A stretch of DNA of 63,547 nt, counting the filler, from an uncultured Acidimicrobiia bacterium (GTDB lineage: Bacteria; Actinomycetota; Acidimicrobiia; Spongiisociales; JAOTWH01), in assembly GCA_964347285.1 (NCBI GenBank). It is 3 parts of 3 records of this genome, joined end to end, with 100 filler letters (N's around TTAATTAATTAA, not from the genome) between each part and the next. Parts side by side here need not be neighbours in the genome. Positions count along the whole stretch, not along the records: positions 48,447 to 63,547 come from CAYFYE010000061.1; 2 more parts are not named here. The stretch is one strand, 5' to 3'. A program made the position numbers. Each line of letters opens with the position of its first letter. The stretch's first letter is position 1. This document shows, one piece after another, positions 48,901-63,547 of this stretch.

Positions 48901-51900
48901 GAGATCGCCGCTCTCATGCTGGAGCTTCAGGAGGCCGGGTGCCACAACATCAACTTCGTCACTCCGGAGCACGTGGCCCCGGAGGTGGTGGAGGCGGTGG
49001 CCGTGGCCGTGCCGGCCGGATTGCGAGTACCGCTGGTTTACAACACCTCGGCCTACGACGCCCTCTCTTCACTTCGCCTCATGGATGGGCTGATCGACAT
49101 CTACATGCCCGACTTCAAGTTCTGGGAGCCGGAGACGGCCCGCCGACTGGCCCGGGCCAAGGACTACCCGGAGCGGGCCCGGGAGGCCATCGCCGAGATG
49201 CATCGTCAGGTAGGGGTGCTGCGGTTCGGGCCGGACGGCGTCGCCCGGCGAGGAGTGCTGCTGCGCCACCTGGTCATGCCCGGCCTTGGCGATGAGACGG
49301 CAGCCATCTTCCAATGGCTGGCCGGCGAGCTCTCGCCGGATACCTACGTCAACGTCATGGGTCAGTATCGGCCCGACCACAAGGTGCCCGGTTCCGATCG
49401 CTATCGCGACATCGACCGCCCGCCGGCCCCGGCGGAGTTGGAGGCCGCCTACGCCGCCGCCCGGGCCGCCGGGCTGTGGCGGTTCGACCGGCGGGTGGGA
49501 CGCCCGGTGATCGCCTAGGGCTCGGCCGGCGGGGCCCGGCCGGCCCGCCTACTCGGTATAGAAGCGGTCGTCGATGAGGCGCTCGGACACGTAGCCGCCG
49601 GACGGCTCGAACCGGTAGTGCTCGAAGTCCTTGCGAAACTCCAGGTCGAGCGGGGCCGGGCCGCCCCGGTTCTTCTCGATGGTGAACACCACCTGGCGGT
49701 GGAATGACTCGGCCTGTACCGGGTCGTAGGCGGTGTGCACTTTGGACACGGCGTCGAACTTCTCGTTGAGCATGATCACGACGTCGGCCTCGTAGGCGAG
49801 TGCCGAGGACCCCCGCAGGTGATGGAGCCGCAGCCGGCGGGCGACCAAGCCCGGGGCGTCGCTGGCCACTACTGCCACCACCGGCACCCCCCGCCGCAGG
49901 GAGATCTCCTTGAGGCTCTCGACGACCCGGATGACCTTCTCGGTGTTGTCGACCGAGTGGTCGGGGAGGGCGATCTTCTGGAGGTAGTCGACGAACAATG
50001 CTGCGTGGTCGTGCTCGGCGATCATACGCTCCAACTCGGCCGGCCCGGTGGTCGCACCCGAGGCCCGAGCCAGCCAGAGACGCCCGGCGTACTCGTCGAG
50101 CCGCTCGCATGCGCCTTCGAGGACCGAGTTGTGTGGCACCAGCTCGTCGAGGCCCCGTCGACCGGTAGCGACGTCCCACAGCATCATCCGCAGCTGATCG
50201 GAGCCGGCCAGGTCGGTGCGCCGGGTGATCTCGCCCACTTCCAGCATGATGAGCCGGGCCAGCAATGCCGAGACGTCGTGCTCGAAGCAGGCATAGACGA
50301 CGGCACGACCCGATCGGGCGGCATGGCGGGCCCACTGCAAGGTGACCACGGTCTTGCCGACGCCGGGCAGCCCCCCGACGAGCGTCAGGTCGCGGGGAGC
50401 GAACCCGCTACCGAGGGCCCGATCGAGGGGATCGAACCCGGTGGCGGACCAGGTGGATGGGTGGCCGGCTCCTTCCCGGAGCGAATCCTTGATCGCGGCG
50501 GCCGTGTTTGCTCCGATGAGGGTTTCCCGAAGGTGGATCGTGTTGGTCAAGGGGGCTCCCTATCCGCCCAGTGCCCGCCAGATCCTGATGGCCGCAGGGC
50601 CCAGGAGCACGATGAACAGCGCCGGGAAGATGCACAGGGCGAGAGGGAAGATGATCTTGACGGGGATCTTCAGCGCTCGCTCCTCGGCGCGTTGATGTCG
50701 CTTCAGCCGCAGTTCAGAAGCCTGGACCCGCAGCACGTCGGCGATGGGAAGGCCGTACGCCTCGGATTGGAGGGTGGCGAACACGAAGTTGCGGAGGTCG
50801 GAAACCGTGCTCCGCTCGGCCAGGTTGCGCAGCGCCTCGTCGCGAGAAACGCCGATTTGCATCTCCTGAAGCACCCTGAAGACCTCCTCGGCCATCGGCC
50901 CCTCGCCCACCTGGGCGGCCCGTCCCAAGGCGGCCTCGAAGCCGAGACCGGCGCTGACACTCATCGTCAGCTGGTCGAGGACGTCCGGAAGGGCTCGCTC
51001 GATCTCCTGCTGCCGCTCTGTTGCCCGGCTCCTCACCACGAGGTCGGGAATGAAGTAGCCGACGGCGGCTCCGGCGACGACCACGAGCAGAAGCCGACCG
51101 AGGCCCTGAGGGCCGAGCACGAACCACGAGATGAACCCGGTGAGGGCCGCCATGAGGAATTTGGCCGCCAGCACTCGCTCCACGGGCCACTTCGCCCCCA
51201 GCCCGGCGAAGGTGATCTGACGCTCCAGCCCCTCCACCCAGCCGGCCGGGGTGAGCACTCGTAGCCGCCCCGAGATGGCGGCGATTGCGGGACGGAAGAC
51301 ACGCTCGGTGGCCGATTGGGTCAGGGCCAGCTGGTGCAGGTCGGCGGCCGGGGCGCCGTCCCCTGCGGAGGCGCGGGCCGGCCGTTTGGCGCTCAGAGAG
51401 AGCCACAGGATCGGCAGCGAGGCGGAGATGGCCGCAGCGGCGATGATGACGGTGAGTGGCATTCTCGGACCCCCTAGTACTCGAGTTTCACTATGCGCCG
51501 CATCCAGGCGGCGCCGACGACCATCAGCAGTCCCCCGGCTCCCAACAGGACCTTGCCGAAGCCGGTGCCGGTGAGTTCAGAGATGTAGTCGGGATTGCTG
51601 ATCGAAATGAAGCCGGCGGCCAAGAACGGGAGAGCGATCAGGATGATGGCCGACAACCGGCCCTCGGCGCTCAGGGCCAGGATCTTCCGTCGGATCTGGT
51701 TGCGGTCGCGGATGGTGGTGGCGACCCGTTCCAGGACCTCGGCGACATCGCCGCCTACTTGACGGTTGATCTCCATGGCTTCGACGACCCACTCGAAGTC
51801 CTTGCTGTTGACTCGGGCGGCCGCCGCCTTGAGCGCTTCGTCGAGGTCCCGTCCCAGGTTGACCTCGGCCACGATTCGCCGGAACTCGTCGGCCGATGGG

Positions 51901-60900: not shown

Positions 60901-63547
60901 TGGAGCTCGGCGGGTATTCCCGGTCCGCTGTCGTGCACCTCGATGTGGACCTCATCGCCCGCCCGGAATGCCCGGACTTCGACCGGGGCTCCCGGGGCGT
61001 GGGTGCGGGCGTTCTCCAGCAATCCTTGGACCACCTCGGCGGTGGAGTGCACGTTCCCCCATGCGTACAGGCTGCGGGACACGTGCAGCGTCACCTCGGC
61101 GCCGTACAACTGCTGAACGGAGACTGCTCCGACCAAGGCGTCGGCGACCGGGAAGGGAGCGTTCTCGCCCTTCGGGATCGTGAGCAAGTTGCGCAGCAGA
61201 CCGATTTCGGTGCGGATGGTTGCTTCCAGGCTGGCCAGCGTTGCGGTTGATGCGCCGGGGTCGTGTCGACCCAGCAAATGGGTGGCATGATCGATAGCGG
61301 CGAGTGCCGACTTGGCCTCGTGGCGCCGATGTTCGGCGGCGGCGAGCTCGCTCCGGGCCTCCGCTTGGAGCCGGGCCAGGGTGGCGTGAGAGCGGCGCAG
61401 ACGTTCGTTCTGTTCGGAGTATTGCCTCTGCACCTCGGCGGCCGCGCCGAGCAAGGCAAGGAGCAGCCCGAGCATGAGTACTGCGCCGGCTCCGGCGACG
61501 AGCACGAATTCCGATTCGGCCGACACCAGGTGGCTCAGCTCGACGAAAGCGAGTGCCACCAGGCCCAGGCCGAACCATCCTGGCAGCGAGTCTCTTCGCA
61601 CCAGGCCGACCGACAGGTAGGCGGTGCCCAGTGAGCCCCAGACCGCCGCCAGCACGATCGTCAGCCAGGCATCCGGCTCGGGCCTCCCGGCCGCCAGATT
61701 GGCGATGACGGTGGCGATGCCCAACAGGGCGGCGGCGCCGGCCGTGGTCCGATACGGACCAGGAGTCAGGTCCAGGGCCGGGCTCCGCAGCCCATGGAGC
61801 AAAACGACGACGGTGCCGATCACTACCAGCGCCCAGAGCCCGCCGGAGGCGTACGCCGCTGTAGTGCCGGGGCCCGTCGTCGGCTCTGTGAGAACGAATG
61901 CGCCGATGAGAATGGCGGCGGTACCCATCCAGGCCGCTGGGGCAGCGCCCCGGTGATGCCACCACCGCAGGAGGAGCACCGCCAGAGCGATGCTCACTGC
62001 GGCCGCGGCGGCCGCCAGAACACCTTCGAGCAGGCCGGTGTCGAGGCCGCCCCAGGGGTGGCGGGGATCCTGGGAGGCGACCGCGAAGGACACGAAGACG
62101 GCCGCCAGCAGCGCTGCTCCAAGCAGGAGTGCGGCTGCGGGCGAATACCGCTTGGCTCGCTCGCCGTGGGAGATCTTCCCGTCCTCCATGTGGTTTCCCG
62201 TTTGATCCTGGCCCCGACACAGAGTGTCAGGGCCATGATTGTGCCAAAAAAACCACGGAGAGGCAACCTCTTTGCCACAAATAGTGTTATTTTCTCGCCG
62301 CGACGACCGAAGCGGCTTACCCCGTATGGAGGGCTTACTCCGTATAGAAGCGGTCGTCGACGAGCCGTTCGGCTACATAGCCGCCGACGGGGTGGAACCG
62401 GTAGTGCTCGAAGTCCTTCTGGAATTCCAGGTCGAGCGGGGAGGGACCGTCCCGATTCTTCTCGATCGTGAAGACCACCTGCTGTTTGAAGGTCTCGGCT
62501 CGGACCGAATCGTAGGCGGTGTGGACGTTGGAGACGGCCCGGAACTTGTCGTTCAGCATCACGACGACGTCGGCCTCGTAGGCGAGCGCCGAAGAGCCCC
62601 GCAGGTGGTGCATCCGGAGGCGGCGAGCGTTCAGGCCGGCCCGATCCCCGGCGACCACGGCCACGACTGCTATGCCGCGCGACAGGGCGATCTCCTTGAG
62701 GCCCTCGGTGATTCGGGTGACCCTCCGCCCCTCGTCGGGGGCGCCCTGCACCGGCACCTTCTGCAGGTAGTCGACGAAGAGAATGGCCTCGCCGGCTCCG
62801 TGATCTTCGGTCGCCTCGTCGAGCTGACGCAACCCGGTGTGGGCGCTGGAAGCTCTGATGAGCCACAGCCGCCCGGCGTATCCGGAAAGCCGGTTGGCGG
62901 CGGTGCGCACGAGGTCGCTCCCCGGAGCGACCTCGTCGATCGTGCGGTCGCCGGTGGCAATGGCCCGCACCAGGGCTCGCACCTCGGCACTCCGCTCGAG
63001 GTCGCTCTCGTCTGCGATCGTGCCGATCTCGGCAAGGAGCAGGCGGGCGAACAGCGAGGCCTGATCGTGCTCGTAGGAGGCGAAGATCGCCGTCTTGCCC
63101 GCCTCGGCCAAGCTGCGAGCCCACTGCAGGCTGGCGACGGTCTTGCCCACCCCGGGCCCACCTCCCACGAGGACGAGATCCTGACCCCGCAGCCCCCCAT
63201 CGAGGGCTCGATCCAACGGATCAAACCCGGTGCTGTAACTGACCGGTCCCGCCGATGGTGCCTCGCCGGCCTCGATTCCTTCGAGCACCGAGGCCATCGA
63301 CCGGGGCTTGCCGACTTCGGTGGCGAGCTGAATCATGGTGATATCCCCCTCATCCGAACAGTGTCCTCCACATCCGCAGGGCGGCCGGCCCGAGCAGCAC
63401 GATGAAGAGGCTGGGGAAGATGCAGAAGATCAGCGGGAAGACGATCTTGACCGGCACCTTGAAGGCGCGCTCTTCGGCCCGCTGGCGGCGCTTGTCGCGC
63501 ATCTCGGCGGCCTGGACCCGCAAGGTATGGGCGATGGGGAGGCCGTA

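Follow-up and report, generated by a model that had tools for sequence, protein, structure and literature searches.

Tad pilus loci of Actinomycetota with a predicted extracytoplasmic vWA domain on TadB and, in a subset, a DnaB-derived ATPase

Introduction

The platform proteins of type IV filament systems are usually taken to be inner-membrane cores without large ectodomains. A Tad pilus locus in an uncultured Acidimicrobiia bacterium (GenBank assembly GCA_964347285.1) raises the question of what two further parts might do in such a machine: a vWA domain fused to the platform protein TadB and an ATPase resembling the helicase DnaB that is encoded next to tadC. The window, that is, the whole stretch of 63,547 nucleotides (filler included) that was analyzed, joins three contigs, and the locus lies on C61 (CAYFYE010000061.1), which occupies positions 48447 to 63547. 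Here, we describe the two parts, their distribution, and the explanations that they allow.

Results

By gene content, the C61 locus is predicted to encode a Tad/type IVc pilus machine (Flp, TadA/CpaF, TadB, TadC, TadZ/CpaE, CpaB/RcpC, TadE, and TadG). All of its genes are on the minus strand. From higher to lower coordinates, it contains a Flp major pilin gene (58593..58787; PF04964, 51 bits against a cut-off of 32), a Flp-like pilin gene with a G/ATIVEY motif read from the sequence (58316..58501), tadE for a minor pilin (57942..58319), a tadG-like minor pilin gene in whose product no vWA was detected (56851..57954), cpaB/rcpC (56016..56837), tadZ/cpaE with receiver-like and ParA/MinD-like parts (54826..56019), the motor ATPase gene tadA/cpaF (53441..54829; PF00437, 238 bits), the vWA-tadB gene (51474..53444), the platform gene tadC (50560..51462), and the first copy of the DnaB-derived ATPase gene (49549..50550). 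Both tadB and tadC match PF00482 (T2SSF). Next to the pilin genes are a LuxR-type response regulator gene (58896..59585) and, farther on, a membrane histidine kinase gene (60582..62189), and a second LuxR-type response regulator gene given as its longest ORF (59699..60955), whose true start is probably about 180 codons inside that ORF. The contig ends with a second copy of the ATPase gene (62335..63336), about 60% identical to the first, and the 3' end of a second tadC, tadC2 (63350..63547).

The remainder of this second vWA-tadB operon is on contig C119. Because the last 55 bases of C61 are the first 55 bases of C119 and tadC2 crosses from C119 into C61, the two Tad loci are in tandem, as the genome-wide survey's note had proposed. 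The ATPase start follows the tadC stop by 9 nt in copy 1 and 13 nt in copy 2. No prepilin peptidase was found among the scanned genes of the C61 locus; in actinobacteria, tadV typically lies apart from the tad operon (PMC4322843). A promoter and terminator scan of the locus gave a result at chance level, and a PADLOC search with four proteins returned no match for three and one weak 25-bit match. A third Tad locus of the same genome (C35) has neither a vWA on TadB nor a DnaB-like ATPase.

The 656-aa vWA-TadB begins with a predicted signal peptide (approximately aa 1 to 26), followed by an Ig-like sandwich with an inserted vWA (aa 33 to 296, encoded by 52557..53348 on the minus strand; Pfam VWA at aa 91 to 254), a Pro-rich stalk (297 to 344), a membrane helix (345 to 371), and the TadB core (T2SSF at aa 490 to 613). 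The signal peptide, vWA, membrane helix, and T2SSF reported earlier were found in both tandem loci, as were the Ig-like part of the ectodomain and the Pro-rich stalk, and the vWA and T2SSF domains were present together in 120/120 homologs among the matches listed. Eight of these 120 are tandem double-vWA forms and were left out of the following counts. In the single-vWA homologs among the matches listed, the MIDAS motif D-x-S-x-S/T/D (D96, S98, S100, T161, and D189 here) is complete in 112/112, and 107/112 have an N-terminal hydrophobic segment that includes an AxA-like site. Across the same 112 proteins, the stalk has a median length of 40 aa (range, 18 to 56; 28% Pro), and the mean number of K plus R is 1.0 before the first membrane helix and 5.9 after it. 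From hydropathy, the AxA-like site, and this positive-inside bias only, we infer that the ectodomain is extracytoplasmic. On sequence grounds, it is an adhesion-type domain with a predicted metal-binding MIDAS.

In the predicted model, the vWA sits within the beta-sandwich, and fold matches of the ectodomain include the pilus adhesins Mfa5, PitA, SpaC, and PilB (Z 20 to 23). PilY1 is likewise a vWA-bearing pilus adhesin. The same module is also found elsewhere: two Chloroflexota carry it fused to TadC rather than to TadB, and a vWA-FHA protein with a receptor-like layout (L183) carries this secreted module as well. The TadC-borne module of L076 groups with that of L183 (SH-aLRT 93, unstarred). 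The adhesin matches, the L183 and L076 modules, and the double-vWA forms speak for the ectodomain as an outward adhesin or a sensor of ligand or force that signals through TadB to TadA, rather than a structural collar around the pilus base. We consider this reading a real possibility, if somewhat improbable. Against it, a stalk of at most about 14 nm would probably not reach beyond a monoderm wall of ordinary thickness. A collar on the cell-wall side of the pilus base is the reading that we develop below. Since module-less TadBs exist, having lost the module (C35 and L020), it is not essential to Tad. Pfam vWA was detected in 0/20 TadG proteins from these loci, whereas Caulobacter CpaL carries a vWA (PMC13170226). 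Among the plasmids searched, there was no full-length vWA-TadB and there were two partial matches.

The survey's note had combined both parts in one recurring subtype. In 301 evenly drawn Actinomycetota genomes, an intact vWA-TadB was found in 70, the ATPase in 30, and both in 22; in a class sample, vWA-TadB was found in 43/151. Both parts are real and recurrent, but they do not form one package: 48/70 vWA-TadB genomes in the phylum sample and 36/43 in the class sample lack the ATPase, and the ATPase also occurs with TadBs that have no vWA (L014, L020, G052, and G092). Among genomes that carry Tad, the two parts are weakly associated (22/6/48/33; Fisher p 0.07, with kin not independent). A fixed two-part subtype was rejected on this co-occurrence. 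vWA-TadB is a common form of the Tad platform in the sampled Actinomycetota. Given its presence in 70/301 genomes, at loci spanning 31% to 71% GC, we regard it not as a curiosity but as one of the major forms that the Tad machine takes in monoderms.

The scores of the ATPase had been described as weak for DnaB, RadA, and KaiC alike. We found instead that Pfam DnaB_C matches the window ATPases clearly, with 74 to 79 bits against a cut-off of 27, and that the ATPase model is closest in structure to the DnaB C-terminal domain (Z 28.6; rmsd 2.8; 252 residues aligned), followed by RadA (23.2), KaiC (20.9), and FlaH (18.1). On these fold scores we rejected descent from KaiC/ArlH, and the match to the KaiC Pfam model is confined to roughly the first 65 positions. 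Scores were 58.5 and 70.7 bits for TIGR00665 (DnaB replicative helicase; cut-off, 385) and 31 bits for TIGR00416 (RadA/Sms; cut-off, 403). The 333-aa protein consists of a linker helix and an SF4 ATPase domain, with no further Pfam domain; the N-terminal DnaB domain PF00772 is missing from both window copies, as the note had said, and is present in 2 of the 11 long relatives scanned (P0156 and P0160). A search for longer fusion forms (673 to 2000 aa) at E 1e-30 found none, a result of little weight. The tree separates the family from canonical DnaB by a 100/99 branch, and with its fold this marks it as a distinct DnaB-derived clade. Genes of this family are currently annotated "replicative DNA helicase." We rejected a role as the replicative helicase itself, as a canonical DnaB is present separately here and in 5/5 Chloroflexota checked. 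A phage-borne family was also rejected, viral contigs having given only distant DnaB-like matches (≤29% identity). A weaker match on C8 of this genome is probably its radA.

Which functions of DnaB the family might retain was read from 147 members. Walker A, the catalytic Glu, the Walker B Asp, DYLQ, the K-x-R finger, and the linker helix are kept; K65, D189, D256, K293, and R295 are invariant (147/147), and E89 is present in 144/147. Ala occupies the position of the sensor residue (E. coli Q384/T7 H465) in 135/147 and Asp that of N386 in 108/147, and the DNA-binding Arg (R403/R487) is kept in 124/147 and lost in 23/147, often to D, E, or G; the roles of these positions are taken from PMC6391071 and PMC1616965. 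New near-invariant positions are located in a family-specific insert and tail (K264, K or R in all 147; L325 in 145; G318 in 143). The hydrolysis residues thus appear intact and the DNA-coupling residues eroded. The pore loop, however, is more basic than that of DnaB (mean, +2.65 versus +1), and R246-G247 are kept, as in T7 gp4, in 124 and 137 of 147, features that would fit DNA binding.

The main rival to an accessory role at the pilus is a RadA/ComM-like function, in which the ATPase, as a ring-shaped translocase on single-stranded DNA or as a branch-migration helicase, would process DNA taken up by a Tad competence pilus. The DnaB fold, the retained finger and linker helix, the T7-like LRGSS loop, and the basic pore loop speak for this function, and the eroded coupling residues beside an invariant hydrolysis site speak against it. 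This genome encodes comEA-comEC; ComEC presence is nondiscriminating, because ComEC-family matches were also obtained in 10/14 control genomes. In Limnocylindria, a cpaE-like gene 7 to 17 kb downstream of the ATPase adjoins a comM-type gene, and the comM-type, dprA, and topA products were confirmed with one representative each. Among the recurrent neighbor families of the actinobacterial copies (heuristic gene calls), however, there was no comEA/EC, dprA, or ssb. NCBIfam models for actinobacterial Tad are named for a helicase neighborhood (TIGR03819 heli_sec_ATPase, near its cut-off here); we take the linked helicase behind that name to be a DEAH helicase. Overall, we regard a DNA translocase as rather unlikely.

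The gene neighborhood bears on whether the ATPase acts on the pilus at all. It had been described as closing the operon, which holds for both loci here, where it follows tadC, but for only 9 of 30 sampled carrier genomes; in 11 others it lies at the head of the operon in divergent orientation, in 4 it is convergent, and in 6 it has no tad neighbor. Linkage to tad over these three arrangements is thus 24/30, and the Chloroflexota loci L076 and L145 are tad-linked as well. The ATPase could nevertheless be a general regulatory or housekeeping DnaB paralog that travels with tad in Actinomycetota but has no action on the pilus. The family extends to Chloroflexota; in the Limnocylindria of that phylum, it follows ftsH and precedes a J-domain or HAD gene, is as conserved as canonical DnaB, and has very short branches; tad core genes occur in 0/35 of these loci, and 15/35 show only tadE/G- or cpaE-like genes. 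Elsewhere, 7/45 loci have no tad gene, solitary copies occur in G033, G305, and G307, and LuxR-type regulators often adjoin the gene. This explanation is nonetheless very unlikely in our judgment. A Tad platform gene was found in 30/30 carriers of the phylum sample (28 in the TadB search; in the other 2, tadC lies on the same contig), compared with a background of 109/301 genomes with a TadB-type gene (36%), and Tad was found in 33/34 carriers of a second set against a 60% background; in several loci the ATPase start codon overlaps the tadC stop; and G307, G433, and G435, with solitary copies, have a related tad operon elsewhere in the genome. The tree of the ATPase is congruent with that of TadA (Mantel r 0.63), which may reflect the species tree only. 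In searches for Tad, G076 (95% complete) gave weak TadB-like matches only, G434 gave none, and a TadC search of G634 had no match.

Discussion

The explanation that we favor, tentatively and as falling just short of probable, is that a Tad machine has gained two parts that can occur without each other: a MIDAS collar on the platform, facing the cell wall, and an optional, ArlH-like ring of an accessory ATPase. The Ig-like/vWA ectodomain, on its stalk of about 40 residues, would be joined to the outward-facing N terminus of the first TadB membrane helix. With about three TadB per motor, it could form a collar around the wall side of the pilus base, in which each domain is a metal-dependent clamp. 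The clamps would hold on to an acidic residue, be it in the tip pilin, in CpaB, or in the wall, and thereby anchor the pilus or prime it. The TadB-borne vWA might in this way replace the one that Caulobacter has on its tip pilin, CpaL. The ATPase would retain from DnaB a ring-forming, ATP-hydrolyzing core with loosened DNA coupling and could sit on the cytoplasmic face of the motor, where it would switch or remodel the single bifunctional TadA. In that role it would be a bacterial equivalent, of independent origin, to archaeal ArlH/FlaH. ArlH docks on ArlI (PMC12024892), and FlaH is a second ATPase of Epd pili, relatives of Tad (PMC6668835).

For the collar, we counted the complete MIDAS, the N-terminal segment, the stalk, the charge bias around the first membrane helix, the modeled fold with its adhesin matches, the lack of a Pfam vWA in TadG, and the TadC-borne modules of the two Chloroflexota. 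For the accessory role of the ATPase, we counted its fold and tree position, the invariant hydrolysis residues beside the altered sensor and DNA-binding positions, the new near-invariant positions, the presence of Tad in all carriers of the phylum sample, its tad linkage, the agreement of the trees, the ArlH/FlaH precedent, and, in a single member (P0168), MshEN-like c-di-GMP motifs in tandem, the first of them a near-match, that gave no Pfam hit; the MshEN domain is known from pilus ATPases (PMC5013675). Counted against our explanation were the DNA-binding features of the pore loop, the N-domain in P0156 and P0160, the Limnocylindria copies outside tad operons, the loci lacking tad, the search results for G076, G434, and G634, the many vWA-TadB genomes without the ATPase, and the TadBs that have lost the module. 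A more elaborate version is distinctly unlikely: bacteria would have rebuilt an ArlH-like switch independently from their replicative helicase, the DnaB-derived ring would dock under the single bifunctional TadA and set extension versus retraction, and the integrin-like MIDAS head on the platform would sense load or ligand outside the membrane, making a transmembrane sensor-motor-switch for the monoderm Tad. Control by c-di-GMP would apply to one lineage only.

Literature searches found no description of vWA-TadB or of a Tad-linked DnaB-derived ATPase, in agreement with the earlier search, and the parts of the supplements of PMC6668835 that were covered had no match for DnaB, VWA, Willebrand, or KaiC. 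Both parts thus appear to be undescribed. vWA-TadB bears on what holds a pilus in a cell without a secretin and on how one motor ATPase is directed to extend or retract. For a DnaB-derived family that tracks a pilus locus, there would be two possibilities: a replicative helicase has become an accessory of a motor, which would be a rare event, or Tad-based competence has a DNA-handling component that had been missing from its parts list.

Like the Caulobacter Cpa and Micrococcus luteus tad systems, these loci combine Flp, TadE, TadG, CpaB, CpaE/TadZ, TadA, TadB, and TadC in one operon; they differ in the secreted Ig-vWA on TadB and, in a subset, the extra ATPase. The vWA is on CpaL in Caulobacter, whereas TadG here has none. 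CpaL, Streptococcus sanguinis PilB, PitA, SpaC, and Mfa5 share a MIDAS vWA inserted in a beta-sandwich, but they are pilins or tip proteins, and here the vWA is fixed to the membrane platform. With DnaB/SF4 helicases (E. coli DnaB, G40P, and T7 gp4), the ATPase shares the fold, Walker A, catalytic Glu, DYLQ, K-x-R finger, and linker helix; it differs in mostly lacking the N-domain, in having Ala for the sensor Gln/His, and in its conserved insert and C-terminal tail, at about 20% identity. RadA/Sms also has a DnaB-type ATPase domain without the DnaB N-domain but carries extra N- and C-terminal domains that the 333-aa ATPase lacks. ArlH/FlaH of the archaellum and Epd pili likewise belongs to the RecA superfamily of ATPases, and its gene accompanies those of a type IV filament motor (PMC12024892, PMC6668835). 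It is, however, KaiC derived rather than DnaB derived, and ArlH has a divergent Walker B and no demonstrated ATP hydrolysis, whereas the catalytic residues of the ATPase described here are intact.

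Tandem Tad loci with two additional parts

The window joins contigs C32, C33 and C61, the last of which (48447-63547) carries a Tad operon on the minus strand. Its genes encode two Flp-type pilins, TadE, TadG, CpaB, CpaE/TadZ, TadA, a TadB platform protein with a vWA ectodomain (vWA-TadB; 656 aa, VWA at aa 91-254, T2SSF at aa 490-613), TadC and, closing the operon, a 333-aa DnaB_C protein, here called the ATPase (49549-50550). A second DnaB_C gene (62335-63336) lies 5' of the operon, as do two LuxR-type regulators and a histidine kinase located between the tandem loci (58896-62189). 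Over 55 bases, the end of C61 matches the beginning of C119, a contig with a second vWA-tadB operon; the tadC of that operon terminates within C61. The gene content and this overlap therefore confirm the genome-wide survey's note, which had described tandem loci with vWA-TadB and a DnaB-like ATPase. At a third Tad locus of this genome, on contig C35, TadB is short and the DnaB-like ATPase is missing.

LuxR-type and histidine kinase-like genes also lie beside many of the related tad loci, both those that have the ATPase and those that lack it. A radical SAM gene (48538-49518) is convergent to the first ATPase gene, and the gap between the two contains a GC-rich inverted repeat. Duplicate tad operons or TadB copies also occur in other Actinomycetota (genomes G164, G242, G148, G154 and G142); those of G164 (locus L190, contig C15) are in tandem. 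Often, a hydrophobic protein of 450-510 aa with a D-(N/P)-x-x-W-H-x-R..D-P-F-S-type motif is encoded 3' of tadC or the ATPase gene (relatives' loci L101:3547-4896, L103, L104:12054-13592, L105, L106 and L109); it is also 3' of the ATPase gene in L010, L135 and L141 and 5' of it in L145. One of five such proteins scanned matched EpsG weakly. This protein, which we presume resembles a GT-C glycosyltransferase, possibly serves pilin glycosylation.

The vWA ectodomain of TadB

In the AlphaFold model of vWA-TadB (mean pLDDT 80), an N-terminal helix is followed by a beta-sandwich (aa 36-83 and 262-296) that holds the vWA as an insertion. A Pro-rich stretch, disordered in the model, then leads to a membrane helix (aa 345-371) and the TadB core; with a pTM of 0.43, the placement of the domains is unreliable. 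Its top structural matches are vWA domains, including those of the pilus adhesins Mfa5, PitA, SpaC and PilB (Z 20-23), which inform on fold alone. The survey's statement that all listed homologues combine VWA and T2SSF held for 120 of 120, a result partly built in because candidates were limited to 360-1148 aa. Eight of the 120 bear two tandem Ig-vWA modules (L002:6262-8961; P0270-P0284) and were set aside. The MIDAS is complete in all 112 single-vWA homologues, whose stalks have a median length of 40 aa and 28% Pro. Two features suggest that the vWA is extracytoplasmic: a signal-like segment bearing an AxA-like site (107/112) and basic residues clustered C-terminal to the first membrane helix.

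Short TadBs in C35 (8947-10002) and L020 (7795-8865) keep a signal-like stub ahead of the first membrane helix, which suggests loss of the vWA module. In two Chloroflexota, the Ig-vWA module is instead on TadC, with a plain TadB upstream (L076:7942-9924; L182:343-2256). A related secreted vWA module is joined to a C-terminal FHA domain in a receptor-like protein (L183:7776-9554). The L076 module clusters with that of L183 with modest support, which hints that the L076 fusion to TadC arose independently.

An ATPase of DnaB ancestry

At E ≤0.001, 1702 of 8000 candidates were relatives of the ATPase, the best 120 spanning 296-384 aa. The closest fold to its model (pLDDT 90) is the DnaB C-terminal domain (Z 28.6, rmsd 2.8, 252 aligned), followed by RadA (Z 23.2), T7 gp4 (22.9), KaiC (20.9) and FlaH (18.1). 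The match starts at the DnaB linker region, so the ATPase likely forms a ring. A tree built from 33 members together with 7 canonical DnaBs and T7 gp4 places the family on one side of a 100/99 branch; the outgroup is long and the bootstrap values are not fully settled. Two of 11 long relatives scanned (P0156 and P0160) keep the DnaB N-domain. A separate canonical dnaB is present in the source genome and in five of five Chloroflexota. No family members were found in viral contigs.

Comparison of 147 members with E. coli DnaB and T7 gp4 revealed an intact ATPase site and apparently eroded DNA-coupling residues. No member deviates in the Walker A Lys, the Walker B Asp or the K-x-R finger, and 144 retain the catalytic Glu. 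The position of T7 H465/E. coli Q384, a bridge from the DNA site to the nucleotide site (PMC1616965), is Ala in 135; that of N386 is Asp in 108. The Arg that contacts DNA (PMC6391071) is present in 124 and lost in 23. Counting against eroded DNA coupling, the pore loop is more basic in the family (+2.65) than in DnaB (+1). New near-invariant residues are located in a family-specific insert and the C-terminal tail. One member, P0168 (L147:1265-2620), has an N-terminal tandem MshEN-like c-di-GMP motif (as defined in PMC5013675), for which Pfam gave no support.

Linkage to Tad across rearrangements

Among 301 evenly drawn Actinomycetota genomes, 30 encode the ATPase and 109 a TadB of this subfamily; vWA-TadB is intact in 70, and 22 combine the two extra parts. 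Of 151 genomes sampled within the class, 10 have the ATPase, 43 vWA-TadB and 7 both. Thus, both parts of the proposed actinobacterial Tad subtype recur, but they are separable. Without the genomes flagged as unpublished (G291 and G388 for ATPase and TadB; G356, G172 and G200 for TadB and vWA; G597 and G616 for TadC), the phylum counts are 28, 104, 66 and 21, and no claim depends on flagged genomes alone. A TadB of this subfamily was present in 28 of the 30 ATPase genomes and the remaining two have tadC on the ATPase contig. No diverged ATPase copy was found when 20 vWA-TadB loci were inspected whose genome or site had no ATPase listed. Exceptions are G076, with only weak TadB-like matches, and G434, with none.

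By our reading of the loci, 24 of the 30 genomes have tad genes close to the ATPase gene; the other 6 do not, and in three of these a contig end cuts the locus. The survey's view that it closes the operon fits the 9 genomes in which it follows tadC, but not the 11 in which it is divergent at the operon head, the 4 in which it is convergent or the 6 with no tad gene nearby. Linkage to Tad therefore persists across rearrangements. Among the best 80 of 534 relatives, a set biased to close relatives, 45 loci are not of the Limnocylindria type: the ATPase gene is directly 3' of tadC in 30, upstream of tadE/G in 1 and facing flp pilins in 3, tad core genes are elsewhere in the locus in 4, and 7, some on short contigs, contain no tad gene. 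TadA and ATPase distances correlate (r 0.63, 38 loci), which shared descent alone could produce; kin among the sampled genomes are not independent, and p-values overstate.

In 251 Chloroflexota, the ATPase was found in 34 genomes and TadC in 150, including 33 of those 34. True tad linkage was seen at L076 and L145. In Limnocylindria the ATPase gene is 3' of ftsH, and among the same best 80 relatives none of 35 such loci contains tad core genes, while 15 have tadE/G- or cpaE-like genes. Next to the cpaE-like gene lies one of comM type, and dprA and topA are close by (one representative each). These loci keep open a role for the ATPase independent of the pilus, which we consider improbable. A conserved Limnocylindria run (L059:9767-21005, L154, L077) comprises ftsH, ATPase, J-domain, HAD, SLOG, nfeD-SPFH, cpaE-like, comM-type, dprA and topA genes; some of these runs are interrupted by scattered tadE/G genes that lie on the opposite strand. 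Actinobacterial or Limnocylindria-type loci in records titled Kiloniellales, Burkholderiales, Bifidobacterium and Steroidobacteraceae (L006, L033, L041, L047, L055, L075) may reflect mislabelled bins or transfer.

Possible roles and comparison with known systems

We tentatively favor a reading, short of a firm one, in which the MIDAS domains of TadB would form a collar on the wall side of the platform and the ATPase would act as an accessory on the Tad motor. Two points favor this reading: conservation has moved away from the residues that couple to DNA and onto new surfaces, and archaeal relatives of Tad use the RecA-type partner ArlH/FlaH of the filament motor in this way (PMC12024892, PMC6668835). 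The main rival, a translocase for DNA imported by the pilus, stands because transformation in M. luteus requires Tad genes (PMC4322843), yet it appears less probable. For the ectodomain, the collar is only slightly more likely than a function as an outward-facing adhesin or sensor.

Full-text literature searches, whose coverage left out most subscription papers so that absence from print is unproven, found no paper describing vWA-TadB or the DnaB-like Tad ATPase and no "VWA domain" in the Tad papers retrieved; the available portion of PMC6916266 names a vWA for a minor pilin only. Both architectures are already present, nameless, in automated databases. We conclude that vWA-TadB and the Tad-linked DnaB-like ATPase are two separable, apparently undescribed parts of a known kind of pilus system. 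In Caulobacter, whose platform has been modelled as a trimer of heterodimers, the tip protein CpaL carries a vWA (PMC13170226). Here, in contrast, the vWA is on TadB, and none of 20 TadG proteins from vWA-TadB loci has a Pfam vWA.
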